Positions 1-54,816 of a stretch of DNA of 64,000 nt are shown one piece after another (the first letter of the stretch is position 1; the number at the start of each line of letters is the position of its first letter). Source of the DNA: Octopus vulgaris (lineage: Eukaryota). Position numbers and translations under genes: made by a program. The notes beneath the pieces are model-generated. The model did not search any database. It had not been told where the DNA came from and was given only the letters and a program-made list of their open reading frames with translations. Location: the NCBI GenBank assembly GCA_951406725.2, contig OX597815.1:115196001-115260000 (forward strand), given 5' to 3'.

Positions 1-1254
1 AACAACCATGTCATTCATTTTTGCAGAGTTTGAACTTCATATTCTTCTTTTGATAAAAAGATTATATACTGGAGGAGGGAGGGGGCAATATTACAAATGT
101 ATGCAAAGAGTACAAAATAAAAGGGAAAAAAGCACAGATGATTGATAAAAATGTCCTCAATATCCAGGATGCACGTCTTGGGTAAATTTGCCAAAGGAAG
201 ATATTAGGTTTTCTCCCCACCACCCACTAGGTTCCTTGCCAAAAAATAGTATAAATTTAATGAATTTACCCTCGCTTAGAATCATGTTGTATAGTTTAGG
301 TCATATGAGCATAGATTGAAATCGTTAACTTTGCTCTTAATGAATTTTGAAGCTTTGAATTTTAATAACCTTATTCTCCAAATAATTTATATGAATGTTC
401 AAGAGGATAGAGTGTAGTGCAATTCCTTCGAGAATATAGCTTTTGGATTTTGTTGCTTTTGAGAAATCGTCTGCTGACAATATACTGTTTTCAGTTCGTC
501 AGAAAATTATTTATTCGACGTATTATGGTGAATAAATTACATAATTATGTAAGAATTCTATATATTTATGGTAAAAGCAACTTTCGCTAACGTACGTGAA
601 CACAAACCAGATAATAAATTCACAACACCTGTCCACTATTAGGGAAAGGACAGAAAATATTGTCACTAATCTGGGCGTTTTACAGACCTTCCTTCTAACT
701 GTTTAAAATATTATATTTACAGCATAACCATGCTTTAACAAATGTTTAAATATATGTTTTAAGCGATACTGAGCGATATAATTACTTTAAACATCGTTAA
801 TGTTAGAGAAATACTGGCAATGGGTGTCAAAAAATGCATTCAAATAAGAAAATGGCGGGGAAAATAAAAATCGTCTGCTTGCCAATATAACACAAAAATA
901 GGGAAGGTCGGACATTCCGAAACTGCTGTGAAACTTTAAGACAACCTTTGCATTTTCACCCAGTGAAAGTAATGCAATGTGCCAGAGATCCCTTGTTTAT
1001 GGAAATAAGGCAAGTACCAGCAAGTAATGCCCCGGCGCCCTTGTTAATGGCAATCATCCAAGTTACCAGATATTTCTTTCATTCGAATGCAAAATAAACT
1101 CTAAGGGTAAAGTGAATAGTATAAAACATTTCGTCTTCACTGTTAGCAGGCAAAATACCCGCCAAGTGCTCAGGAACATACCAACACATTTGCCGGCCTG
1201 ATCTGCATCAATCGAAAGGAACCAATGCCACAGCTTCTATGTAGCTACTAGTCG

Positions 1255-1590
1255 TACAAGAGATATAAGCTAAATCTCCCTCAAATTACATCTATCATCA
1301 TGAAAAGGAGAAAGGTACAGCGACGATGAACTCCTAAATCTGCGTAAAGATGAGAGGAAAAATTGGCTGGAACGCCTTCGCTTATAGGTGTGCTCGAATC
1401 AAAACTCTCCTGGGAGTTACCAACAATCTATAAACCCATCCAGTGTAAGAAATAGCAATGAGCTCTCCCTCAAATTATATCCTATCGTCTTAAAGATGTA
1501 GTGGAAAACGTAGTCATGAATATACAAAATAAAAACGATATGGTCCTGACTGGAGCGTCTTAGATTATAGGTCAGTTCCATTAGAGAGAT
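1255..1590 (-). repeat. Two tandem copies of an unclassified short interspersed repeat (other copies near 7.86k, 12.83-13.13k, 19.39-19.56k, 50.43-50.62k, 55.85-56.0k, 61.13-61.27k, 63.84-63.99k)
   Basis: The motif agaaatagc..c.aaatctccctcaaat.a.a..cta.c.tcttaaa...gtagtc(c)tag recurs across the window in both orientations. Confidence 0.55.
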
Positions 1591-3672
1591 GCCAATGTTT
1601 CCCATGTAATACAAATGTCCTGACGGGCAGGATATAAATGAAACTCATTTTTATAATTTAAGAAAACCTCAAATAAAATATCGAAATCTGACAAAGCATA
1701 GAGTGTAATTGATAACATAAGCTTAAATTTTATTTTTTTTAAATGCTCGAACTAAATTGTTTTTTTTTTTAAATGAAATTAGTTAAATGAAATAATCAGT
1801 AACATCCTGGTGCCAAGCCAGTCAACATAATTAGCCCAACAATTGCTTAATGTCTAAATGGGATTATAATAAAGTATTTTAGGGGAAATTTTTGTAAAAA
1901 CTAAAAAGCTCCTAGTAAATTGGTTTCGTTGGAGACCCTTAAGCAAAAAACAAAAGACAACAGTTGGTATGGATAATTTTGCTACGTAACTTTCTATCAT
2001 TATCTTAGAGACAATTAGAATATATATTTTGAGAATAACTTGCTTGTTTCTTTTTTACATGAAAACCATCTGGAGATAGAACCAGACTTGGCGCCTTTTT
2101 ATTTATAAGTACGATTAAGGAGTGGGTAGGGACAGAAAGCGTGGTAACATTGAGATCCCAAAAGCTCGCTTATAAAGTGTCTGTGTACAAACCCTATTCA
2201 ATCCTAAATAATTTTACATAAAAAAAAGTGCTGTCAAAATCTTTAGAAAACAGCACTGGGATTTAGATTTGAGAATAGAGATGAAATAAGGAAAATGAAA
2301 GGGAGTTAGGTTTCGGTGCAACGCGTAAAATAGAGGGTAATCTAACAGATTTTAGTCTCACACACGTGTGTATGCTTACTTGTACACGTTCATACAAGTG
2401 TTGAATTGTTTTATTAGCTGATTGTTTTAACGGGACAATATTATTTTCAATAAATCAGATTTCGTTTAAATTAAAAATACTATAATAACAAAGTGACCCA
2501 AAAGTAAAAAATAAAAATCTACTTAAAACGGTTAAAAAGTAGAGTTGGTTTCTGATGAGGGGAAAAAAAAAAAAAAAAACGCAGGTCATCAGAAGCACAT
2601 TCATGTGTCGACAAGTGTCAGTAGATAAGAACGACGACATTGTCATTTACGTTGCCAGGTGTCATTTGCTCATACAAGCTCACCTGATCTAAGTAAGACC
2701 GAGTTGAGTTCTCTCATGGGGACGCGAACGATGTTATCGCGACGTCGAAATGTCTAGTATGTGACAATGTGACAAGCCCTGCCAATATTGCTTGTCCCCA
2801 AATAAGCACAACAAATACTTATTAGATAGTGTATACTTAAACCGTATGGAAGGTGTATTACTTTATAGTTACGTCCTTTAACAGTTCTGTCAGTAAATAT
2901 TTTGGAATAAATTCACAAATTAAAGAGAGCAACAATTAAGTAAGAGCTAAAAATCAGTACACATTTGTTTTTATAGAAGTAAGGCCTAATGAATATAGGC
3001 TGGTCCTCTTTAACGGAGTTCTAAAGGAATGAATAAACTGCGTGTCAGTTTAACTAATCACAAAATGAATTGAGGAATGCAAAAAAGAAAAATATATATT
3101 TTCGATGAAATAACCAGAAGTATATGTGTATGATTTAAAATTTTCACTTTTCAGACTACTTTTAAAAATTTTTTTTAAAAACTCAAAATCTTTGATTACA
3201 GAGTTTCACACACACACAGAAGTGTGTGTGTTTTCTAATAACTACATAAAACCATAGTTAACAAATCAGTGTGGAAAAAAAGTTTTAAAAGCCTAGAGGT
3301 GAGATTATATACCTGGAAATGTTCACAAACACACACACGCACATATATATATATACACACATACACGCAGGATAAACTTAAACAGCGCACAAGTAATGTT
3401 TGAAGACAGTAAACTATATGCTATAAAAATTACAAAAAAAAAAAGTTTTGAAACAGACAATCGCATCACATACGGAAACCGAAAAATAAAAAAAATATAA
3501 TTCACTTTCATTTATAAACGTTGAAAAAAAAAAAGAAAGAAAAAAAATATACTAGAAAGGTATAAAAGTCACAACTCTTATTATCATAAGCCTTCAAACT
3601 AATAAAATTTATGGTTTGATTTTTCGGTAAAAACCAAATCAAATAAATATATATTTTTTTTCTTCAACTTAC

Positions 3673-3723
3673 CTTTATCCAAAGTTCGAATTCTGGTATC
3701 GTGAGTTTTGTTTCTAGTGACAT
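3673..3723 (-). CDS. CLIC: First coding exon of a chloride intracellular channel (CLIC/EXC-4 family) gene; the rest of the gene is not found in 1-3672 and presumably lies left of the window
   Basis: Minus strand reads ccgtc-ATG TCA CTA GAA ACA AAA CTC ACG ATA CCA GAA TTC GAA CTT TGG ATA AAG|GTAAGT = MSLETKLTIPEFELWIK followed by a perfect phase-0 donor. P-E-x-E-L-x-x-K matches the CLIC N-terminal motif (fly PEIELIIKA, vertebrate IELFVK/VELFVK), and vertebrate CLIC genes have a phase-0 intron right after this K. It lies about 190 nt downstream of a promoter-like region. Confidence 0.75.
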
Positions 3724-3904
3724 GACGGAAAGAAAATATTATTTTGAATTATTCGTACTCCTTTCACAAACACACGCAAGTGTGTGTGCGTGCGTGGAAA
3801 AAGTTTCTCACCACGAAACAGATATCGTAAATGAAAATGAGAAAAGTTTGAGAGAGAGATAAGATATATAGTAAGAAAGAATGAGAAGTAAAACCCTCTT
3901 AACA

Positions 3905-4030
3905 AAATTCACTCCAATCTGAATGCGTTATCCAACAACCAATGATGACGCATAACAACTCAGCTATTGGAGCAACTCCGCTGGCGGGACAACCGAGCGC
4001 ATGCGTATTCGCCACATGCTAGCGCACTTG
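3905..4030. promoter_or_regulatory. CpG-rich TATA-less promoter, probably bidirectional
   Basis: CCAAT at 3914 and 3939, ATTGG at 3966, CRE-like TGACGC at 3946, E2F-like GGCGGGA at 3983, NRF1-like GCGCATGCG at 3997-4005. Local CpG enrichment, immediately upstream of the CLIC-like exon. Confidence 0.7.
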
Positions 4031-4495
4031 CCCCCATTTCATTGACAGGACAGTATTGTCTCTGTTTAACTGGATTTTCGGGGCTAGGGGTGGCTTTTCT
4101 TCTCTGATTTATTTATCTATTTTTTTAAGTAATATTACTGTTGCATTTATGTTTTCTTTCTTAACTTCTTTTTCTCCACTCATTCCCCCCCCCGCTTCTG
4201 ACAACTATTTCTTGTTTATCATTGAATAAAGTTTGATAAACTGGCAGTAGAGATTAATATTCAGAAACAGCAAATTAATTTATTATAAAAACAGAAAATA
4301 ATATTTACAAAACAGAATTAAATATATATACATATATATATATATTTATATCCAAGTAATTATTTTTTCTAGAGCAGGAAGTATAAGTTACTGAAACAAA
4401 GATTTTTTCTTTTTTGGTTATCTTTGCTATTCTTTCAAACTGCCAGATGTTGCCTTGAAAATGACTTTCTTGTAGGTTAACCATCAATAAATCTG

Positions 4496-9930: not shown

Positions 9931-12128
9931 CAATGATGTTGAACCGTTACCCAATTGAGATCTCAAAGTTGTTTTATGAATTAAAAATAAAAAGGAAAAG
10001 AAATGGGAAAACAAAGTTTTACTGAAATACACATAGTTGATAGTTGTAATTCTAATACATATGTTACTTACTGAAATAGTATTCAGGGTTTATTGAGAAC
10101 ATCTTCATTATTAATGTTATCTCAATAACATGGATGGAAACTGAGCTAGTGGGAGGTTCTGCCACCAATGAACTTTGATCAATGTGTTATCTTCATTTTC
10201 AAAGGCAGCACATAAAACAGACATTTTTGTAACAAAGACAAAAAGAAAAATAATTAAAGGTTGGATAAAATTTTATGAGTTAAGGAGTTAAATTGTTTAA
10301 TGTGTAGTCATGAATTAAATAAAAATTGCAGTATATCTTTGAGTATTATCTCAACCAGGAATGTCTCTAAATCCTTGGAAAATGAATGACTGTGTTGGAC
10401 AATCAGAGAAGTGGTTTGAGATTTATTTTCTATTATACGAAATGTTCAGAGCCAAAACCCTTGAATCCAAATACTAAGTTGATTTCTCTGTAAGTAGATA
10501 CTACAGGGTAATATAAATTACTGAAAACTGGGATAATATAGTAAAACTAATAGATGATTATTAGCTTGAATTAGTGAGTTCAACTCTACCAAAAGAAAAA
10601 TATATTTATCAAGAGACAGCCATCTTCTCTAGGTAAAATTTCTTTTCATCTACATACTGAAACAGAAATTAGGAATAAATACTGATCCAGATGCTCATGA
10701 AGCTCTGTGAAATGAAGAAAATAGAATGTAATCTGATGGGTTGTTGGGGCACTACTGAAGATTATGTCTTTGTTTAGTTTTTCAGAATGAGATATAGTGA
10801 AATAGTTTGCTATTACCACATTGCGGTATCTAGAACAATCATGGGAAACTGTAGCCTTTAGAAGTTTCTGAATGGCATGCTAATGAGAAATTAACTTGAA
10901 TCTTTTTACTAGTAAGGCTAACCTCATGAGGAGTCATATCTCATGCAACCTGCTTCTCATAAAAGACTACCTATACCTGCTCTAGAAGGATTTAAACTCA
11001 ATCACTGCAAGCTAAGTAACATTTGTCAATTATACGGTATCCTACCTTCCTTGCACCTTTAACATCGCTTATACAAAATCTCTGCTTTGCACCGGTCAAC
11101 AACTATATATAAGTTGGTTCATAGATATATAACTTTTCATAGATCAAAAGTTATATCTGCTGCAGATGTATATTAGTTGTTTCTGGTCAGAATGTTTTAT
11201 TCTATTTAATTCACTTGACTGTTGGAAAGAAGTGCAAATGTAGCTTCTTGTGGATCAGTGTCCTAATCAGAGAAGTCTTGTCTCTCATCTACTTCACTCA
11301 TGTAATGAAAGGTAGGCAGCAAATAATCAGATATCTGATAATCTCTTGACTCTCGGGAGGCATTTAAAGTTCATATTTACAGAAATGAATATTCATCTAT
11401 TATAAATTAAGTGCTTTTTTTTCCAGGAACATCATAAATCAGTGACAGATACAAACCATTGACATATGTATCGGTATTTTATTTATTTTCTATGGCTTAG
11501 AGAAGAAAGGATGTCTATAGCATTTTTCATGTCCTTCAAAACTAGTGGGAGGATAGGAGAAAGATAACCTGAATGTTTGCAACAGTGTGGACTTTGCTAA
11601 AGATAACCAAGGATCATATGGTGGTGTCTAACTAGACACTGGATTAGGACTACTATCCAAGTATAACAGTATATTATTGACTTTATTAGCTGTAACTTTT
11701 GTTGTACCAATTTATAGTTAACATTGTTATATAACTCTTTACATAATGAACTTTAGGTTAGTTAGAGTATGTTTGACACATTTTAACTTCTAAAGGCAAA
11801 TTCATTGCAGTTACTATGTTGGAAAAATTCTCTCTTTTGGTAAAAGGTGCAAAAACACCATATCTGCCTAGTGTCTCCCTCTAGCAGATTCCCAGATGCA
11901 CATTTCTGGCTCTTTAGCTTTTCTCAATACCAAAAAGAGATAACTCTGGACAAATTCAGAGCTGTAGCTTTAACTAAAAAAAAAAAACAATCAACATTAG
12001 TGACTGAATTGTGCTAGTGGACAGCCTGGTCATTATAAAAATAGAAGCATCAGTGCCAAGCAGTGATTAGGAATAAACAAACATTTGGTTAGTTAAAATA
12101 TGCTTGTAATATATTTTAACTTCTAAAA

Positions 12129-13773: not shown

Positions 13774-13831
13774 ATATATATCATCATCATCATCATTTAG
13801 CGTCCGCTTTCCATGCTAGCATGGGTTGGAC

Positions 13832-14449
13832 GGTAATAATTTCTGTCGGCTTTTTTTTTTTTCGAGTAGCGTGCGTATTGTGAAAAATTATATGGTTATG
13901 GACAATATGTCCAATTTTCGGCATATTTGGCATTAGAAAATTTTTCGTTTGCCCTTATTTATAAGTTGTTTATAATTTTAACCGTTAAAGGTATTTTTTA
14001 ATATGCTGGCCATTGATAAAATTTTTTTCTTTTGAAAAAAATTTTATCCTGCATTAAATATAAATTTAAGTGTTCACTTCCGGACTCTCTCACTCTGTGA
14101 GAACCTTAGTTCAAATCGCATGTGTCTTGAATGGGCTGGAGTATTTCTATTTTGGATGTATTTGGGGTACTTAATTGTGCTCTTGACTTAGTGTTTTGCT
14201 TCTTCCATGGGTATGAGTAAGTATTTCATTTATTTCTTTGCCACATTTATCACTGATGAAGGGAGGGTTCTTATGAACTAACCCTGAAATCGGTCCGATA
14301 TGGTAATAATGGAATTTTTTAGAAATTTCTGTCGGCTTTTTTTTCGAGTAGTGTGCGTATTGTGAAAAATTATATGGTTATGGACAATATGTCCAATTTT
14401 CGGCATATTTGGCATTAGAAATTTTTTCGTTTGCCCTTATTTATAAGTT
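13832..14449 (+). mobile_element. Non-coding partial-tandem mini-element (Penelope pLTR/retrozyme-like) containing a hammerhead motif
   Basis: Near-identical terminal direct repeats 13832-13967 and 14302-14449 (period about 480 bp). A hammerhead lies just before the second repeat and the 3' end runs into (TA)n. CpGs are retained, suggesting a young insertion. Confidence 0.7.
14238..14306 (+). ncRNA. Type I hammerhead ribozyme motif
   Basis: CTGATGA (14253-59); stem II AGGG..GGTTC-ttat-GAACT..CCCT; GAAA (14286-89); short stem III T-CG-G then GTC (predicted cleavage after 14295); stem I TATC/GATA plus TTGCCA/TGGTAA around a bulge. One A-C mismatch next to the core. Confidence 0.7.
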
Positions 14450-14479
14450 ATATATATATATATATCATATATCATCTTC

Positions 14480-14860
14480 ATCATCATCATCATTTAACAT
14501 CCACTCTCTATGATGGCATGGGTTAGACAGTTTGATTAGAGCTGACAAGCCATAGGATTACACCAAGTTCCAATCTGATTTAGCATGGTTTCTACTGCTG
14601 GATTCCCTTCCTAACACCAACCACTCCAAGAATGTAATGGGTGATTTTTATGTGCCACCAGCACAGGCGCCATGTACATGACACTGGCAATGGCTATGAC
14701 TATGGTTTCACTTGGCTTAACGAGTCTTCTCAAGCACTGCATATTGCCAAAGGCCTTGGTTGCTTGTCATCACCTGTGTGAGGCCCAGTATCTGAAGATC
14801 ATGCTGCTGACAATGGCCATAACTATGATTTCCTGGGTGCCATTTACATGACACCAACAA
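14480..14860 (-). mobile_element. RTE LINE 3' tail fragment
   Basis: (cat)n-ttaacatccac..gcatgggttagacag..ctggattcccttcctaacaccaaccactcc, the reverse of the RTE tail. Confidence 0.8.
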
Positions 14861-14881
14861 TCGCCCCATATATATATATAT

Positions 14882-15272
14882 CTTTTACTCTTTTACTTTA
14901 TTCAGTCATGTGACTGTGGCCATGCTGGAGCACCGTCTTTAGTCGGGCAAATCGACGCTAGGACTTATTCTTTGTAAGCCTAGTACTTATTCTATCGGTC
15001 TCTTTTGCCAAACTGCTAGGTTACGGGGACATAAACACACCAGCATCGGTTGTCAAGTGATGTTGGGGGGTAAAACATAGACACACAAACATATACACAC
15101 ACATACATATATATACGATGGGCCTCTTTCAGTTTCCGTCTACCAAATCCACTCACAAGGCATTGGTCGGCCCGGGGCTATAGCAGAAGACACTTGCCCA
15201 AGATGCCACGCAGTGGGACTGAACCCGGAACCATGTGGTTGGTTAGCAAGCTACTTACCACACAGCCACTCC
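14882..15272 (-). mobile_element. Full-length tRNA-derived SINE, family 1 (resembles described Octopus OK/OR-type SINEs)
   Basis: Minus strand starts GGAGTGGCTGTGTGGTAAG (A box)..GGTTCAGTCCC (B box), has an internal (TA)(TG) tract and ends in (gtaaaaga)n. Near-identical to 20642-21043. Confidence 0.85.
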
Positions 15273-15400
15273 TCAATTGAATAAAGAATATAAAATCCTC
15301 TTAAAGGCATGTCAGCATCGAAGTTCACTGGTTTTATTCAGTGTCAGTGAAAAACCAAAGATGTTAGTTTCACCCTGATGGATATGGGTATAAGTTATTT

Positions 15401-15895
15401 AAGTAATAGAAAAAGAAAATAGAGAACCTGACATATAGACATCAATTTATTTGAACATATTCAATTCCGTACAATATCAAATTCTTTGCTCCTACAGCCG
15501 TTTCCATACCCAATTAATTCAATTTGAGGAATTAAATTAAATTAATTGAAATTTTCAAATCAGATATCATTAATTGGGTATTTCTTCAGGGAAAGAATTC
15601 AATAAAAAGAGGAGCTACTTTCAATGTGTTGGTTGACCCTTGACTGACTCAGGGTCAACCAGCACACTGAGTGTAGCTCCTTTTTTATTGAATTTTTTTC
15701 CCTGACGAAATACCCAATTAACGATATTCGATATCAAAATTTCAATTGATTTGATTTAATTTAATTCCTCAAATTGAATTATTTGGTCATGGAAACAGCT
15801 GTATGAGCAAAGAATTTGATATTGTACATAACTGAATATGTTCAAATAAATTGATGTCTATATGTCAGGTTCTCTATTTTCTTTTTCTATTACTT
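15401..15895. mobile_element. About 495-bp palindrome of two head-to-head hammerhead-bearing arms
   Basis: Arms of about 240 bp; the outer ~60 bp are perfect reverse complements; centre near 15645. Plus arm: CTGACGA (15702)...GAAAC-AGCT-GTA (15792-15803). Minus arm: CTGAAGA...GAAAC-GGCT-GTA. Confidence 0.75.
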
Positions 15896-15919
15896 GATAT
15901 TACTTAAATAATATATATA

Positions 15920-15955
<36 letters not shown>

Positions 15956-16019
15956 TGTATGTATGTATGTATGTATGTATATGTGTATGTATATATACAC
16001 ACACACATAGGATACATGT

Positions 16020-20629: not shown

Positions 20630-20641
20630 TATATATACATA

Positions 20642-21043
20642 GGAGTGGCTGTGTGGTAAGTAGCTTGCTAACCAACCACATGGTTCCGGGTTCAGTCCCA
20701 CTGCGTGGCATCTTGGGCAAGTGTCTTCTGCTATAGCCCCGGGCCGACCAATGCCTTGTGAGTGGATTTGGTAGACGGAAACTGAAAGAAGCCTCTCGTA
20801 TATATGTATATATATGTGTGTGTGTGTTTGTGTGTCTGTGTTTGTCCCCCTAGCATTGCTTGACAACTGATGCTGGTGTGTCTACGTCCCCGCCACTTAG
20901 CGGTTCGGCAAAAGAGACCGATAGAATAAGTACTGGGCTTACAAAGAATAAGTTCCGGGGTCAATTTGATCGACTAAAGGCAGTGCTCCAGCTTGGCCGC
21001 AGTCAAATGACTGAAACAAGTAAAAGAGTAAAGAGAGTAAAGA
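20642..21043 (+). mobile_element. Full-length young SINE family 1
   Basis: GGAGTGGCTGTGTGGTAAGTAGCTTGC..GGTTCAGTCCCACTGCG..internal microsatellite..gtaaaagagtaaaagagagtaaa tail. CpGs intact. Confidence 0.85.
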
Positions 21044-24690: not shown

Positions 24691-26221
24691 TGTGCTTATC
24701 ATAGAATGAATTATTTAGGCAACCTATTCACAGAGCCCAGGCTGAAACATTATACTTCTTCCCCCAGTTTTTTTATTTACTCTTTCTACTTATCTCCATA
24801 TACAAAATCTCAAAACCCATTGGACTAATGATTGAATGACTGACAAATAACCTGTGGAGATAAATAGTATAGATAAGATAGTAAAAGATCTAATTTGAGG
24901 AGAAGAAATGTCAAATTCGTTGTGGTCAATATCAAATTCATTGTTTAATCAATAATAGATATATGGCTTGAGTCCTGTTAGTTGTCTGTTGCACTTTTCT
25001 CTCTCAAATATCTTTGTACTTATCATATCTAATATTCATATTAGTGGTGAGCTGGTAGAATCGTTTGCACACCAGACAAAATATTTTGCAGCATTTTTTC
25101 CAGCTTTATATTCTGAGGTCATCTTTGCTTTTCATCCTCTCAGAGTCAATAAAATAAGTACCAGTTGAACACTGAGATAGATGTAATCGACTAACTCCCC
25201 CCCACTACCGAAATTTCTAGATTTTTGTTTGTTGTAGAGAGGATAGTAGTCCTTTTGTTACCATATTTATGTTAAAATACATTGCCTTTGTTTCAGATAA
25301 TTTTTAAAATAATGAAAAATTTAATTTTGTCATTATCAAGCTGGTGTTTGGAATATAAATCAACTTGAGATTAACCTTAAAACTGAAATTAACATTAATG
25401 CATGATGTTTGCAACAAAGAACTATGGGTGGGAGTAGTGATGGGTGGGGTTGGTATCAAAAGATTTGAAGTTCAGTAAATAACTAATAACAAGGGATTTT
25501 ATCTCAAAATATACAAATACACAGCAGCAATAAAGTGACTAATAGTTGTGATGCTAAGGTGTAAATCTACAGAATACCTGCTCAGGAAGTTAAAGTTTCA
25601 TCCCAATTATTTTGCTGTGATCTCACCTGTAAGGCATTGAGGTCTGTTTCTCGTGACAGAGTGCAAAAAGAAAAAGACCCCTGAAAATATAACAGCAGGT
25701 GTAAAATCCCCTTTCAACTTCAGAGGGAAGTGGTAAGATATAGTAAGACCAGGTTTATAAATAAATAACACTTGCTCCAATAGCATGAAAATATCTAAAT
25801 TTACAAAAAGAAAAAGAACAAAAACAAAAAGAAAGAAAATAAAGAAGTATATAACTTTGGACCATCTACAATGTGCTCCAGTGAACTGTATCCTAAAATA
25901 AGTACAGTAGTAAAGTATCACTGGTCTCCAGAGTTGAGAATCTTCAAAGCTCCAACCATATTCAATATATGGTGTCTAGGAAATGGGAGTGACAGTGTGC
26001 AAAGGAAGTGGAATAGTCAAAATGAAATCATTCATGGAAAATATGACCAATGAACAAAATGAATTCAGTTCAATTACAGCTTCATTCACTGCCACAAATG
26101 AATGGATATTTGCACTCATAACACTTTCAGACAGCAAATATGGTAAATAATCACACACACACACACGCGCACGCGCGCGCGCACGCACGCACACACGCAC
26201 GCACTCACACACACATGTATA

Positions 26222-39494: not shown

Positions 39495-41746
39495 CTGGAT
39501 TGCAAGACAGTGTGTGAGAGAAAATTGTAATGTCATAGGAGAGAAATGTGTCCGCATGGATGATGGTGCACTTGCTTTTAATGATTCGGAAAAGTAAGAG
39601 GTTTGGAGAAGCCATTATGAAAGACTGCTGAACATGGAGAATGAATGGGAGGAGGAGAGCCTGCCAAATGTTGACCCAGTAGAGGGTCAAGCTATCCCAA
39701 AAGACAGCTTCCTTGTAGATAAAGCAATTAAGGGTATGAAGCTAGGAAAAGCCCCCGGTCCATCAGGAATCACTGCTGAGATGCTTAAAACATCTGGTGG
39801 TGTGGGCTATTGCCTAGTCACCCACATTGTAAACCAGGTAGTTCATGATGGAGTCATACCCAATGACTGGCGTAGCAGCACCATAGTCAACTGCTACAAG
39901 GGCAAAGGTGATGCTCTAGATAGAAATAACTACAGGGGTATCAAACTACTGGATCAGGTGATGAAGGTCATGGAGAGGGTCATAGCCCATCTCGCTAGGG
40001 ACAGAGTCTGCTTAGATGAGATGCAGTTTAGTTTTGTGCCGGGTAGAAGCACCACTTATGCCATATTCCTGGTTTGACAACTGCAGGAGAAATACATAGC
40101 TAAAGATAAACCCCTATACTTAGCTTTTGTGGACTAGGAAAAAGCCTTTGACAGGGTCCCCCAATCCCTTATCTTGTGGTCAATGCAGAAACTGGGGATT
40201 GACGAATGGTTAATAAGGGCTGTACATGCTCTATACAGAGAGGCCATTAGTAAGGTTAGGATTGGAAATGAATATAGTGAAGAATCCTGGGTATAAGTAG
40301 GGGTCCACCAAGGCTCAGCTCTCAGTCCCCTTTTATTCATCATAGTCCTCCAGGGTTGTCCCTGAGAGCTCCTCTATGCTGATGACCTAGCCCTCTTAGC
40401 AGAATCCCTACCAGAACTAGAAAAGAAAATTTGGGTGTGGAAGCTAGGTTTAAAATCAAAAGGCCTTAGAGTCAATGTAGCAAAGACCAAAGTTCTAGTA
40501 AGTAGTGAGGTGAACACATCACATACCCACTCAGGTAGGTGGCCCTGCTCGATCTATAGAAAAGGTGTTGGTAGAAACTCCATAAGATGTACTCAGTGTA
40601 AGCTATGGACACATAAGAGGTACAACAACAACAAAGGAAGATTAACCAAGAAGATAGCTTTTGTGTGCGGCAGATGCACAGGGGCAATAAACACACAGAT
40701 GCTCAGAAAACAGATTCCATCACATGCCGGAGGAAACACTAGAAGTAGTTGATAGCTACCGCTACCTAGGTGACCAAGTCTGTAGTGGGGATGGATGTCC
40801 AGAGAGTGTTACCACTAGAACAAGAATAGTCAGGGCAAAGTTCAGAAAGCTTCTACCCCTACTGGTGACTAAGGGCTTCTCATTCAGAGTGAAAGGTAGA
40901 TTGTACGATGCCCGTGTGTGAACTGCCATGCTTCACAGCAGTGAAACATTGGCTGTGACTGTGGAGGAGATTTGTAGGCTCGAAAGAAATGAAGCTAGCA
41001 GGATCTGCTGCATGTGTAATGTCAGTGTGCACACACAACAGAGTGTAAGCGCCCTGAGAGAAATGTTACACATAAGAAGCATAGGATGTGGCGTGCAAGA
41101 GAGACATTTGTGCTGGTATGGTCATGTACTATGGATGGATGAGGAGAGATGTGTGAAGAAGTACTACTCCCAAGCAGTTGAAGGAATCCGGAATAGAGAT
41201 AGACCCAGGAAGACATAGGATGAGGTGGTCAAGCATGACCTTTGAATGTTGGGCCTCACAGAGGCAATGACGAAAGACCGAGACCTCTGGAGATATGCTG
41301 TGACTGCAAAGACCCAGCAAATAAAGAGAGTTCACGGCTGAATCCTACACCAGTTTCACATAACCAGCACCATCCCATTCAAAAGTACATTGGGAAGTAG
41401 GGTAACCTGCTGTGCTTGAGGAGACCTATTGAGTCAAGTATATCAACATCAAAATGAAAATCAAATGGAAATTGTAGCTGTGATACCCGTGCGTTTGGCA
41501 CATAAAAAGCACCATCCGAACATGGCCAATGCCAGTGCCGCTTTGACTGGCTTCTGTGTCAGTGGCACGTAAGAAGTACCAACTACACCCATGGAGTGGT
41601 TGGCGTTAGGAAAGGCATCTAGCTGTAGAAACACTGCCAGATCAGACTGGAGCCTGGTGCAGTCTCCTGGCTTTCCAGACCCCGGTCAAACTGTCCAACC
41701 CATGCTAGCATGGAAAATGGACGTTAAATGATGATGATGATGATGA
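39495..41746 (+). mobile_element. 5'-truncated RTE LINE with disrupted reverse transcriptase
   Basis: GKAPGPSGITAEMLK..KGKGD..NYRGIKLL..AFVD*EKAFDRVP..GVHQGSALSPLLF..LYADDL (40375-86)..YRYLG..WYGHV..RPRKT, then the 3' UTR and (GAT)n. Several stops and frameshifts. Confidence 0.95.
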
Positions 41747-42350: not shown

Positions 42351-43790
42351 ATTGGTTCATCTCATAAATAATGCAGTTTTCTGAACAAAATTATTTTTTC
42401 CTCTAAAATATACTCTCCTTCATTTTCTACAATGCTCTTCCATCTATCTGGTAGACTTGCAAGGTTCCGCTTCCAAAATTCACTTGTCCATCACAAAAAA
42501 TACTCCACCAGTACTGTTCTGACTTCATCTACAGAATTCATATTTTTTCTGTCCAAATGATTTTGAAGACTGCAGAATAAATGATAATCAGATGGGGCAA
42601 TGTCTGGCAAATATGCTGGGTGGGGCATCATTTCCCATTCAAACTGCTCTAGCCTTTTTAATGTCATCCTCTCTGTATGTGGCTGAGCATTATCGTGATG
42701 GAAAAACACCTTTTAGTTTGAAACCAAAGATGGTCATTTTTCTTATAGTGCTAATTTAAGCCACTCGAGCTGCTTACTGTGGATCTTCCATGTTACTGCT
42801 TGGTTTGGGTTTAAATGTTCAATGTGGACTAAACCTTTCATATCCCACTAAACAGATAACAACACCTTATGTGAGTGAAGACCTTCTTTAGCCTGGGGTG
42901 CTAGTGTTCCTCCTTTCCCTACTCACTGTATTCAGCATTTGACATTTTTGTAAAGAACCCATTTCTCATTATCAGTCACTATTTGGTCCAAAAAAGGTTC
43001 ATTCATGAGATGTAACAGCAAAGAAGAGTACATATTAACTCTCTGCATGTGATTAGACTCGGAAAGTTTGTGAGGAATCCATTGACCCAACTTGCTGACT
43101 TTTCCAGTGGCACTCAGTTGTCAATGAATGGTTGAAAGACCAAATCCAAGTTTCTTAGCTAGTTCCTCCACAGTTACAAAGGGATTTTGTTCCCACAAGG
43201 TTTGCAGGACATCTTCATCAAGCTCTACAGATCTTCATGTAAGGTGTTGTTATCTGTTTGGTGGGATATGAAAGGTTTAATCCACTTTGAACATTTAAAC
43301 TCAAAACAAACAATAACAAAGGAGATCTACTGCGAGCAGCTTAAGCAGCTTAAGTCAGAACTATAAGAAAAATAACCATCTTTGGTTTCAAAATGAAAGG
43401 TGTTCTTCCATCAGGATAATGCTTGGCCCCTTACAGCGAGGATGACATTCAAAAGGCTGGAGCAGTTTGAATGAGAAACAATACTCTACCCACCATATTC
43501 GCCGGGCATTGCCTCATCTGATTATCATTTATTCAGAAGTCTTCAAAATCATTTGGATGGAAAAAATATGAATTCTGTAGATGTGGTCAGAACAGTACTG
43601 GAGGAGTATTTTCCATCACGAACAAGTGAATTTTGGAAGAGGGGCCTTGCAAGTCTACCAGATAGATGGAAGAGCATTGTAGAAAATGAAGGAGAGTATA
43701 TAATTTAGATGAAAAAGAACTTTATTCATCTTAATTTTGAAAAATAAAAGAAGTATTTGAAAACCACATTATTTATAGGATGACTCAATA
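42351..43790. mobile_element. Rearranged mariner made of two inverted 3' halves
   Basis: Termini ATTGGTTCATCTCATAAATAATGCAGTTT / AAACCACATTATTTATAGGATGACTCAAT. The minus-strand transposase at 42.4-43.24k reads ..FHHDNAQPH..HPAYLPDIAPSDYHLF... The plus-strand copy at 43240-43700 reads KVLLSVWWDMKG..HQDNA.P..PPYSPGIASSDYHLFRSL. Confidence 0.85.
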
Positions 43791-46419: not shown

Positions 46420-47315
46420 TAAGAGGGTACCCAAAAGAAACCCAAATTTTACAATATTATTTAATTCACTCAGTTTTACATTTATCCTTTTATTGCCTTC
46501 AAAGTATCCTCCATGTGAAGCACTGCATTGGTCCAGGTACATTTTCCACTGTTCGAAGCAGTGCTGGAACTCTTGTGAAGTGATGCCTTTTAAAGCCTTT
46601 GTCATTTTTTCTTCACCTCTTCCACATCTGCAAATTCCATAGCACCAGCTTTCATCACCAGTGGTGACCTTCAAGGAAAGGTCCAGATCAACTTCCAACT
46701 GTTCTTTTAGTTCATGACATATACTCAGTCATGACTGCTTTTGGGCTTCCATGAGCAAGCAATGAACAAATTTTGCTATAACTCTTTTCATTTGCAATTC
46801 CTCATTCAAAATTCATTGGCAGGAGCACCAGGACACATCAATCATATCAAGTTTGTCAATTGTTTGGTGACGATCCTCCAAGATCAATTCATGAATTTTC
46901 ATGTTTTCACATGTTCAGGAGGTCAATGGTTGTCCTGAACAAGGTTGGTCTTCAAGCAACAAGTGACCATTCCTGAAACATGGAAACCACTTGTAAACTT
47001 GTGTTTTTCTCATGGTAGCATCCTTGTAAGCAGTTTGAAGTATGACAACTGTTTTGGCAGCGGTTTTCCCCAGCAGAAAACAGAATTTCATAGAAGCACA
47101 CTGTCTAGTCATTTCAGCCATCGCAAAAATTGGCAAATGGGGGAGAAGCACAGCAAAACAAAGATGCACCGTGTGACAGTAAACTTAACCAGATGTCGCT
47201 GGTTGGTGCACTGATGCCTGAGGGACACATCAAGTGGCTTCTAGTGGCAGAAGCGTGAACTACAATGGGTTTGTTCCACAGAGAACATTTCCAATTACTA
47301 TTGGGTAGCTCCTCA
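46420..47315 (-). mobile_element. Internally deleted mariner (irritans/Hsmar2-like)
   Basis: ORF 46915-47169 MKFCFLLGKTAAKTVVILQTAYKDATMRKTQVYKWF..FRNG...LEDQPCSGQP is a mariner HTH. ORF 46384-46698 joins TGDESWCY directly to the C-terminal EFQHCFEQWK. TIRs gagggtacccaaaag / ctattgggtagctcctc. Confidence 0.85.
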
Positions 47316-52114: not shown

Positions 52115-52830
52115 AGTTTTATTTTTTTTATAGCGTGCTTTCACTTCACTACCGAGCGCAGCTCTGTGTGCCTTGGGTATGTGCTGTGATTTGTTGTGAT
52201 GCTCTGATGGTTATTGTATGGAAAGTGTTCTGCGTAGGATGTGTGCAGTGCCTAGTAGTGCAATTTTCTGTATGTTATATGTGTTTGTAAGTCCTGGTGT
52301 TTTTGTTATGTATTTGTCTGAATATTTTTTATCATGCCTAATGCACCTACTATGATAGGAATTGTTTCTGTTTTCAGATTCCACATTCTAGTTACCTCTA
52401 TTTCCAGGTCTTTGTATTTTGAGAGCTTCTCCATTTCTTTTAGAGACACGTTGTCATCAGCCAGTATTGATACATCAATTAGAAAGCATTTTTTTCTTCA
52501 TGGTCTCTGACAACTATATCTGGTCTGTTGGCCTTAATTTCTCTATCTGTGTGTATCGGCATATCCCAGAGTATGGTTGCTTTCTCGTTTTCTGTGACCT
52601 TTTCTGGTGTGTGCCTATACCATCTTTTTTCTGTTGTTATTCCATAATGTTGGCATAGCTTCCAATGTATGTAGGTTCCAACTCTGTCATGTCTGTGAAT
52701 ATATTCCTTCTTAGCCAGGACTGGGCAGCTAGAGATAATATGATTTATTGTTTCTTGTCCATCTCCACATATTCTGCAGTTACTTGTAATATTTCTTTTC
52801 ATTACATGTTTTTAGTAATTTCTGGTGGGG
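52115..52830 (-). mobile_element. R4/Dong-clade non-LTR retrotransposon 3' fragment (CCHC knuckle + restriction-like endonuclease), flanked by (TAA)n; shorter copy at 53540-53730
   Basis: ORF 52479-52802: CRICGDGQETINHIISSC..YIHRHDRV..ILWDMPIHTDREIKANRPDIVV, then ..YKDLEIEV..W..QKIALLGTAHILR.. The CCHC + RHD + PD..D architecture is that of RLE-type LINEs. Confidence 0.9.
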
Positions 52831-53125: not shown

Positions 53126-53467
53126 TAGTGTTGTTTTGTTGTTGTATTATTATTATATAATTGTTCAACATTTGGCCGTTTGAGGCAAATTTCTTCATCA
53201 TCTGCTACACCTTCATGTTCCTGGGGGTGTGTGCAGCATTGTGTGTTCTCTTCTGTTGTTGGGAGTGTGCAAACCCTTCCCAGTATTGTATTGCATTAGT
53301 TTTTTTCTTTCTTGAGGTGTGGTGCAGTCTTTTGTTGTATTACTGCTTAAATTGTGTGTTGAATGTCTAATGCATTAGTTATCTAGCTTGCTGGTGGAAG
53401 TCTGAAGAGGCGGTACCATTGGCCAATGAGGTAAATCCGAGGCATGGTTATTGCTAGTTGAAAATTA

Positions 53468-53532
<65 letters not shown>

Positions 53533-54816
53533 TAGTCTTATTTTTATTAAGTGTGTTCACTGCACTACTGAGTGCAGCTCTGTGTGTCTTGGGTATGTGC
53601 TGTGGTTTGTTTTGGTGCTGTTATTTTCACTATATTTAAAGTTTTTACGTAGGGTGTATGTAGTGCCTAACAGTGAGATTTTCTGTATGTTATATATATT
53701 CAGAAGTTCTGGTGCTTTGGTTATGTATTTATATTATCATTATTATTAATATTTAAGGTTGTGAGCTGGCAGAATTGTTTGCATGCTGGGCAAAATGTTT
53801 AGCAGTATTTTGTCTGTCTTTACATTTTGAGTTCAAATTCCTCCATGGTCGACTTTGCCTTTCTTCCAATGGGAGTGTTCGATAAAATAAGTACTAGTAC
53901 TGGAGTCGATGTAAACAACTTCCTCCTCCATTCTAACTCTGCTGGACCTGTGCCAAAATCTCAAAACCATTATTATTATTATATCCATTTTACTTCTCAG
54001 AGCTCTTGATTTCACTTGCTTTAGTTATCCAAATAATCTAAATAATTTCCCTAAAAGTTTAGTCATACATTAACTACTTCTGACATTCCTTCACACATTT
54101 TTCTCCTCTTAATCTCCAATATTTTTCTGTTTATCAACTGTTTCCTCTTCACAAGTTTGTAGCCTTGTACCTATTAATTTCTCTCACAAGCCTTGGGCAA
54201 CCTAAGACAATTGTATCTGCCACTTGCCGAAGATGCTATGCAGTGGAGCTGAACTCAGAATTTCATGATTGCGAAGCTTCAGTTGGTACAATTTGTTTAT
54301 GTATGTTTGTGTGTATGTTATGCATGTGTGTGCGTGCACATGTGTGTGTGTGTGTGTATGTTATGCATGTGTGTGTGAGTAACCAGAGCTGCTGGAAGGC
54401 ATCTTACATCTTTAATCCTGTATGTACAATTCATGAGACAGGACTACAACAAAGCCCTTGTTAACCTCCTTTCTTAAACTATTACAGGCCAACTCCAATT
54501 GCCAAAGTGTGTTTTCAGCCAGAAGCAGTGTCCTTCATCTTGACACCAGCAAAGAAAAAGAAAAAAAGGCAAAAGCAAAAACTGCATGCAATATACATTT
54601 ATGATGAATAGTATCTCACATGTACCTGTTGTGTCATCTTCTTTAGAGCTGAAAATGCTGTAAAATCAAGAATTTTGGGGGTGGGTAGTGTGGAGCATAT
54701 CTAATTAGAGGGTTACATTTTCAAACTCTTCCGCTTTACATTAAGACATAAACTTTATATAAACTGTACTTGAGCTTGATGCTACTCATTCATTTCCCCT
54801 TTAGAGAATGACATAG

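Follow-up and report, generated by a model that had tools for sequence, protein, structure and literature searches.

At positions 15395-15911 of the window (the whole stretch of 64,000 nt of Octopus vulgaris DNA analysed), an imperfect palindrome is found, the arms of which (15395-15640 and 15651-15911) align with each other at 88.3% identity over 256 columns (E 6e-89). Two inverted-repeat blocks were detected, namely 15401-15550/15746-15895 (93%) and 15530-15640/15651-15761 (83%). The 495-bp palindrome described in a first-pass annotation (15401..15895) is thus real, but its true span is wider. Compared with 100 shuffles, the hairpin of the whole palindrome reaches a z of -39.5, and folding predicts a duplex of 227 bp with about -311 kcal/mol on the plus strand and about -319 kcal/mol on the minus strand. 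The outermost 63 columns of the two arms are identical (permutation p = 0.008), in agreement with the approximately 60 bp noted earlier. Concerning the flanks that were inspected, no target-site duplication (TSD) was found around the palindrome, and a short duplication is situated close to its right end. The true left boundary of the insertion is hidden, because a SINE-like repeat abuts the left end (Table 1).

Table 1. Features at the palindromic locus, with positions in the window
Feature	Position	Strand	Basis
SINE-like repeat, unrelated, adjoining the left end	15115..15273	-	6 further matches in the window, 74-98% identical
Left-copy extension outside the palindrome; family sequence, left end only	15274..15394	-	contigs of other copies span into the arm
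Left copy (pLTR-like), 5'-truncated at the centre, 10-nt spacer included	15395..15650	-	inverted-repeat and arm alignment; a contig of another copy (X6 record 32) aligns on the minus strand from 15651
Type I hammerhead, intact-looking	15479..15600	-	core and helices I-III read from sequence; resampled controls
Spacer, 10 nt unpaired, head-to-head junction	15641..15650		inverted-repeat search, folding
Right copy, inverted, 5' end 10 nt shorter, without extension, ending at (TA)n	15651..15911	+	arm alignment
Decayed type I hammerhead with intact core (15702-15708, 15792-15795, 15802-15803)	15690..15817	+	sequence, folding
(TA)n/(TATG)n microsatellite at the right end; likely target site	15912..16009		sequence; (TA)n preference of Hydra/Naiad PLEs

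Hammerhead motifs of the two arms

In both arms, the core of a type I hammerhead is complete, lies on the strand of the arm concerned and is directed outward, as had been proposed, and the minimal core of Penelope-like element (PLE) hammerheads (C3-A9, G12-A15.1, U16.1-H17) is present in both. Hammerhead-like motifs with a helix II of at least 13 pairs occurred in none of 300 Markov-resampled 64-kb controls, and those with at least 10 pairs at a rate of 0.007 per control. Rfam returned no hammerhead match, neither for the whole window nor for 13800-16000.

The core of the minus arm consists of CUGAAGA (15589-15583), A15582, G15505, GAAA (15504-15501), C-GGCU-G and GUA (15495-15493), with cleavage predicted after A15493. 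All 13 of 13 pairs of helix II are formed (15581-15569 with 15518-15506) and enclose a loop of 50 nt with 82% A+U, which confirms the perfect 13-bp stem around a long AT-rich insert reported before. Helix I comprises 2-3 bp, a bulge and a further 8 bp, whereas helix III (15501-15494) is self-complementary and can form an 8-bp self-duplex of -9.7 kcal/mol (-11.1 kcal/mol for the equivalent of the other arm); a family variant at 15499 (42% in X1) preserves this self-complementarity. Judged from its letters, the minus-arm ribozyme looks structurally intact.

In the plus arm, the earlier description of a motif CTGACGA..GAAAC-AGCT-GTA held for the core, which is complete (CUGACGA at 15702-15708, GGAAA at 15791-15795, C-AGCU-G, and GUA at 15801-15803). 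The surrounding helices are damaged: 9 of the 13 pairs of helix II are retained and the first pair of helix I is broken. Helix III is a perfect palindrome. With the core held open, helices I and II are lost in folding (-11.5 vs -21.7 kcal/mol when free), and the plus-arm ribozyme is, as far as primary structure tells, decayed.

In either direction, a read-through transcript is predicted to meet the antisense arm first, and the 227-bp duplex would then block the ribozyme, such that the locus would likely be inert apart from being a possible source of dsRNA. The host belongs to a group of animals noted for extensive A-to-I editing, in which such stumps, if transcribed, would give rise to long dsRNA.

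A second, unrelated hammerhead element is situated at 13838-14456 on the plus strand, with direct repeats of 137 bp (94% identical) that lie about 486 bp apart and end at (TA)n. Just before the second repeat it contains a well-formed type I hammerhead (core at 14253) with a helix I of 6 bp, a palindromic helix III of 4 bp and an A-U pair at 10.1/11.1; as a candidate for ribozyme activity, this hammerhead ranks above those in the arms of 15395-15911. In its make-up, the element resembles a partial tandem, either retrozyme-like or derived from a PLE, and a near-perfect palindrome of 34 bp is found within it (14015-14048). A relaxed scan gave a further, weak hammerhead-like match at 10755 (plus strand), with a helix II of 9 pairs including many G-U and a helix I of 2, which is probably due to chance.

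Other features of the window comprise a U4 snRNA match at 53396-53534 on the plus strand (50 bits vs a gathering score of 46, over the full model length), representing a gene or a recent pseudogene, and a young SINE-like repeat with copies at 15115-15273, at 20641-20799 (98% identical to the former) and in five further places. Remnants of mobile elements are a broken non-LTR reverse transcriptase at 39598-40752 on the plus strand (weak RVT_1 match), which we take to be RTE-like from its general resemblance, a zinc-knuckle remnant of a retrotransposon with restriction-like endonuclease at 52479-52811 on the minus strand (weak zf-RVT match), and Mariner/Mos1 transposase remnants (Transposase_1, HTH_48) at 43163-43363 (plus) and 46918-47184 (minus).

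The repeat family and its hammerhead variant

Of the 24 listed runs, 4 were used, and their Logan contigs were aligned to 15270-15690 (421 bp; the left arm, its flank and the centre) at a likeness of at least 80%. In three DNA runs of different organism labels, 359, 307 and 334 contigs matched, mostly 80-95% alike, and the summed depth in X1, which is not equivalent to a copy number, amounted to 200-4200 over 15285-15599, compared with 9.8 for the contig of the locus itself. On the basis of these depths and contig numbers, the arm is a multicopy dispersed repeat older than the split of the three labelled organisms. One further run, guessed to be RNA, yielded 8 contigs, all less than 90% alike, which have no bearing on expression or editing. 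No second copy of the arm was found in the window, where the best other match (24858-24943) reached 63% with an E of 0.18. Exact-motif scans gave 0 matches in viral contigs and 0 in metagenomes. A looser metagenome pattern hit 53 loci, 3 of which had minimal helix pairing and none of which was family-like, and these hits were treated as chance.

Contigs of other copies pass through position 15394 (15273-15454, 15273-15539, 15284-15462) and run on to about 15274-15288, with a summed depth over the extension of 200-640 in X1 vs 9.8 for the contig of this locus. The palindrome thus has its left outer end inside the element. Towards the centre, depth drops between the bins 15585-15599 and 15615-15629 to 0.15, 0.34 and 0.12 in the three runs, about 25-40 nt upstream of the hammerhead core, as 5' truncation would give; divergence among subfamilies could produce this drop instead, or contribute to it. 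Few copies thus extend to the centre, and the palindrome is not recurrent as a high-copy unit. Among the 15 of 24 joints listed, 6 change strand and none is a tandem joint. Head-to-head joints were identified in two other copies (X6 record 32, 15473/15651; X14 record 16, 15597/15420), both with unequal breakpoints that differ from the points of this locus, whereas 3 of the 6 listed strand-changing joints could not be oriented. The joint 15607/15686 was disregarded, as it probably results from the palindromic nature of the reference.

Concerning variation within the family, no core variants were found among the 40 of 186 variant rows listed. Loose ends that begin in the loop of helix II (15543-15553) agree poorly with each other (0.52-0.71), which indicates that the loop is hypervariable while the strands of helix II hold. 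For the third pair of helix I, a loose end before 15491 and a 79% change at 15592, each on separate evidence and not linked on one contig, suggest a subfamily swap from U-A to C-G.

At position 10.1/11.1, A is apposed to G in both arms (A15582.G15505 in the minus arm), and the G10.1-C11.1 pair, to which high conservation among PLE hammerheads is ascribed (PMC4209133), is missing. The first-pass annotation had seen in this mismatch a possible mark of inactive copies, a view that the comparison with the family does not support. Among the 40 of 186 rows listed, no variant row occurs at 15501-15505 or 15581-15589 in the three DNA runs; since every listed row attains about 40% or more in at least one run, A.G is apparently the majority state in all three, and it appears to be a trait of most of the family and not a product of decay. 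Mismatches at this position are, furthermore, common in Hydra-clade PLE hammerheads, the relevant table of PMC8557442 containing them in 15 of 26 rows (14 U.U, 1 U.C and 0 A.G). According to Perreault et al. 2011 (PMC3088659), U-U is the mispair best tolerated there, and mispairs at 10.1/11.1 were rejected in the published search; by analogy, A.G may lower the activity of the ribozyme and would escape searches of this kind. In the literature searched on cephalopod PLEs, foldback palindromes and 10.1/11.1 variants, the coverage of which was incomplete, no description of the A.G variant or of this repeat family was found.

It might tentatively be proposed, although we hold the opposite to be the better bet, that the family represents a working hammerhead variant in which a helix II of 13 bp has A.G at its base and ends in a hypervariable AU loop of 50 nt; this variant would be kept across several species, would cut as a dimer and would be invisible to Rfam and to standard descriptors, because these reject mispairs at 10.1-11.1 or cap the length of the spacer. 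If so, many cephalopod PLE families scored as hammerhead-less or as possessing half a core would harbour hidden ribozymes, and fold-back insertions like 15395-15911 would be ready-made dsRNA substrates for ADAR. Should the form with A.G and a long helix II cleave, the tolerated hammerhead core would be widened, and descriptor-based surveys would undercount PLE ribozymes.

The affiliation with inverted pLTR pairs of Penelope elements, suggested from the outset, is supported by the dispersed multicopy nature of the repeat, by the extension at one end, by the right end at (TA)n and by the head-to-head joints in other copies. The PLE traits found are a type I hammerhead in a terminal repeat, an inverted 5'-truncated copy placed head to head, and a multicopy family with 5' truncation. 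The extension (15274-15394) is absent from the right arm and measures about 120 nt vs the usual 30-40. Both the (TA)n at the right end and the hammerhead layout, assessed by eye, are of the Hydra type, which is suggestive but not diagnostic, and the Hydra clade is, as far as sequence features go, probably the best fit for the parent element. An ORF for a reverse transcriptase or GIY-YIG endonuclease of PLE type was found in none of the 155 (of 219 qualifying) window segments compared with Pfam, which yielded non-PLE remnants only. By eye, the arm did not match the 3' end of Hydra-1_Obim, the 3' part of Naiad_Obim, Naiad_Ovul or the Naiad_Omin consensus. Short motifs of the family are absent or incidental in the supplement of PMC8557442 as far as its text runs, the line breaks of which can hide motifs.

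The extension possibly, on weak grounds, represents the first approximately 120 nt of the ORF of the parent, a length close to the 111-118 nt into the ORF at which reverse transcription begins in the anole PLE (PMC11167929). Of its variant letters, 6 of 9 fall on codon position 3 (p = 0.04), in a frame chosen post hoc and with significance failing once the choice of frame is considered; its read-through of 41 residues, a weak test, showed no protein relative.

Origin of the head-to-head joint

In our view, the locus goes back to one insertion event and consists of two head-to-head copies from the same repeat family, both truncated at the 5' end. Most likely they are the hammerhead-bearing pseudo-LTR end of an endonuclease-encoding PLE (best fit the Hydra clade), and the structure probably arose through fold-back copying during target-primed reverse transcription; to this reading as a whole we assign a probability of roughly 0.7. 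The GIY-YIG endonuclease of the element would nick AT-rich or (TA)n DNA, and reverse transcription would begin internally on the RNA and copy about 375 nt (15274 to 15650), until it halted about 60 nt upstream of the core of the ribozyme. Next, the newly made strand would prime itself, leaving a loop of 10 nt, and would be copied back over about 260 nt before being joined to the target; the outcome would be a palindrome that is extended on one side and lacks a clear TSD. Subsequently, the arms would have drifted to 88% identity, the plus-arm ribozyme losing helix pairs and the minus-arm one staying intact. Within the parent element, cleavage would occur in dimeric form, made possible by the self-complementary helix III of the ribozyme.

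At 9 positions of the arm more than 70% of the depth in X1 differs from the locus; at 7 of them both arms have the same minority letter, whereas the right arm possesses the family letter at the remaining 2. The shared minority letters point to one recent template for both arms, and the junction, symmetric within 10 nt, together with the one-sided extension makes fold-back copying of the first cDNA strand the simplest account. From this symmetry and these letters, fold-back copying is likely. It counts against it that the joints of other copies are asymmetric, whereas that of this locus is nearly symmetric.

Alternatively, two separate priming events may have occurred, one for each cut strand of the target and both from RNAs of one master PLE locus, the resulting arms being joined at their truncated 5' ends: breakpoints of the other head-to-head copies are unequal, one master would likewise leave minority letters in common, and the PLE protein of the anole acts on both strands in vitro, cleaving as well as extending them (PMC11167929, in the assays considered). 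Independent truncations, however, seldom stop within 10 nt of each other, and arms primed in this way should start at similar 3' sites, yet they differ by about 120 nt, so that we regard two primings as unlikely.

Quite improbable, too, is a non-autonomous hammerhead repeat, i.e., a retrozyme-like monomer of about 330-380 nt mobilised by PLEs, of which the locus would contain an inverted pair. Unit size and type I hammerhead fit the animal retrozymes as characterised in the sections used of PMC7229834 and bioRxiv 10.64898/2026.07.22.740005, no ORF is linked to the repeat, and a separate retrozyme-like partial tandem exists 1 kb away; yet no tandem joint occurs among the 15 of 24 joints listed, no tandem copy is present in the window, and the variable loop II of 50 nt contrasts with the short one that canonical retrozyme hammerheads possess.

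The near-symmetric centre and the common minority letters would also result if one ordinary copy had been inserted first and had later undergone an inverted duplication at the DNA level (through a hairpin or a template switch in replication), and the identical run of 63 bp hints at later conversion from arm to arm. Such an origin is very doubtful: the centre itself is family sequence in a few other copies and not unique flank, and head-to-head joints recur both in the family and, according to the parts of PMC3846280 on junctions, generally in PLEs. The alternative named in the first-pass annotation (there with TIR, TSD and an unconserved core) is a MITE or a foldback DNA transposon whose terminal inverted repeats are long and whose hammerhead is incidental. 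It is largely refuted in spite of the suitable size, the AT richness, the identical outer 63 bp and the mariner remnants elsewhere in the window, because the repeat runs 120 bp past one supposed terminus, no TSD is seen, the centre is rare among copies, no core variant occurs among the 40 of 186 rows listed, and the hammerhead motif exceeds chance (300 resampled controls).

The near-symmetric junction with its common minority letters constitutes one more case that bears on how PLEs make their inverted arm.

Comparison with known systems

Like the non-LTR retrozymes of animals, as far as these are treated in the consulted parts of PMC7229834 and of the bioRxiv study cited above, the family consists of dispersed, short, non-coding repeats that carry a type I hammerhead; it differs from them by its inverted instead of direct tandem pair and by the absence of a canonical short loop II, and it is not known to yield circular RNAs.

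For metazoan PLEs, Cervera and de la Pena 2014 (PMC4209133) describe dual minimal hammerheads on opposite strands, 100-700 bp apart, with a short helix I, a long helix II and a palindromic helix III. The hammerheads studied here share with them all core nucleotides, the extra purine after A9, the long helix II, a short helix I whose 5' flank is U-rich and whose 3' flank is AU-rich, and the palindromic helix III for dimers. Compared with the examples in the consulted portion of that paper, they are distinguished by the missing G10.1-C11.1 pair, by an extra G before G12 and by a much longer helix II and loop.

The organization of the locus is most similar to that of inverted-pLTR insertions of EN+ PLEs. 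Inverted pLTRs whose tail is confined to one end have been described, and palindromes at head-to-head junctions have been read as products of self-priming (Arkhipova et al. 2013, PMC3846280); an inverted 5'-truncated copy adjacent at the 5' end, together with a (TA)n bias, is described by Craig et al. 2021 (PMC8557442), and for an anole PLE a start of reverse transcription within the RNA, 111-118 nt into the ORF, and AT-rich nicking are reported (PMC11167929). In common with the insertions covered by the relevant sections of PMC3846280 and PMC8557442, the locus possesses head-to-head 5'-truncated copies, a palindromic junction, an extension at one end, a microsatellite target, no clear TSD and a ribozyme in each arm; unlike in these sections, no ORF is situated between or beside the arms, and the extension measures about 120 nt, not 30-40. 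The architecture is already published, and the palindrome itself adds little to it.

A preference for (TA)n is listed for Hydra and Naiad PLEs, and a Hydra-clade family in Octopus bimaculoides as well as Naiads in Octopus are already listed (PMC8557442). With Hydra-clade hammerheads (Penelope-1_NV, Penelope-13_HM, Hydra-1_Obim), the arms have in common a short palindromic helix III of the form acag..ctgt, a GUA cut, a short C-rich/G-rich helix I, a mismatch at 10.1/11.1 (15 of 26 rows there) and the (TA)n target. Differences from the Hydra-clade hammerheads tabulated in that paper concern the mismatch itself, which is A.G here vs U.U or U.C there, and helix II, with 13 bp and a variable AU loop of 50-55 nt here vs 3-7 bp and a loop of 3-9 nt in the Hydra clade. 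Penelope-13_HM likewise has an inverted copy with a second hammerhead (PMC8557442).
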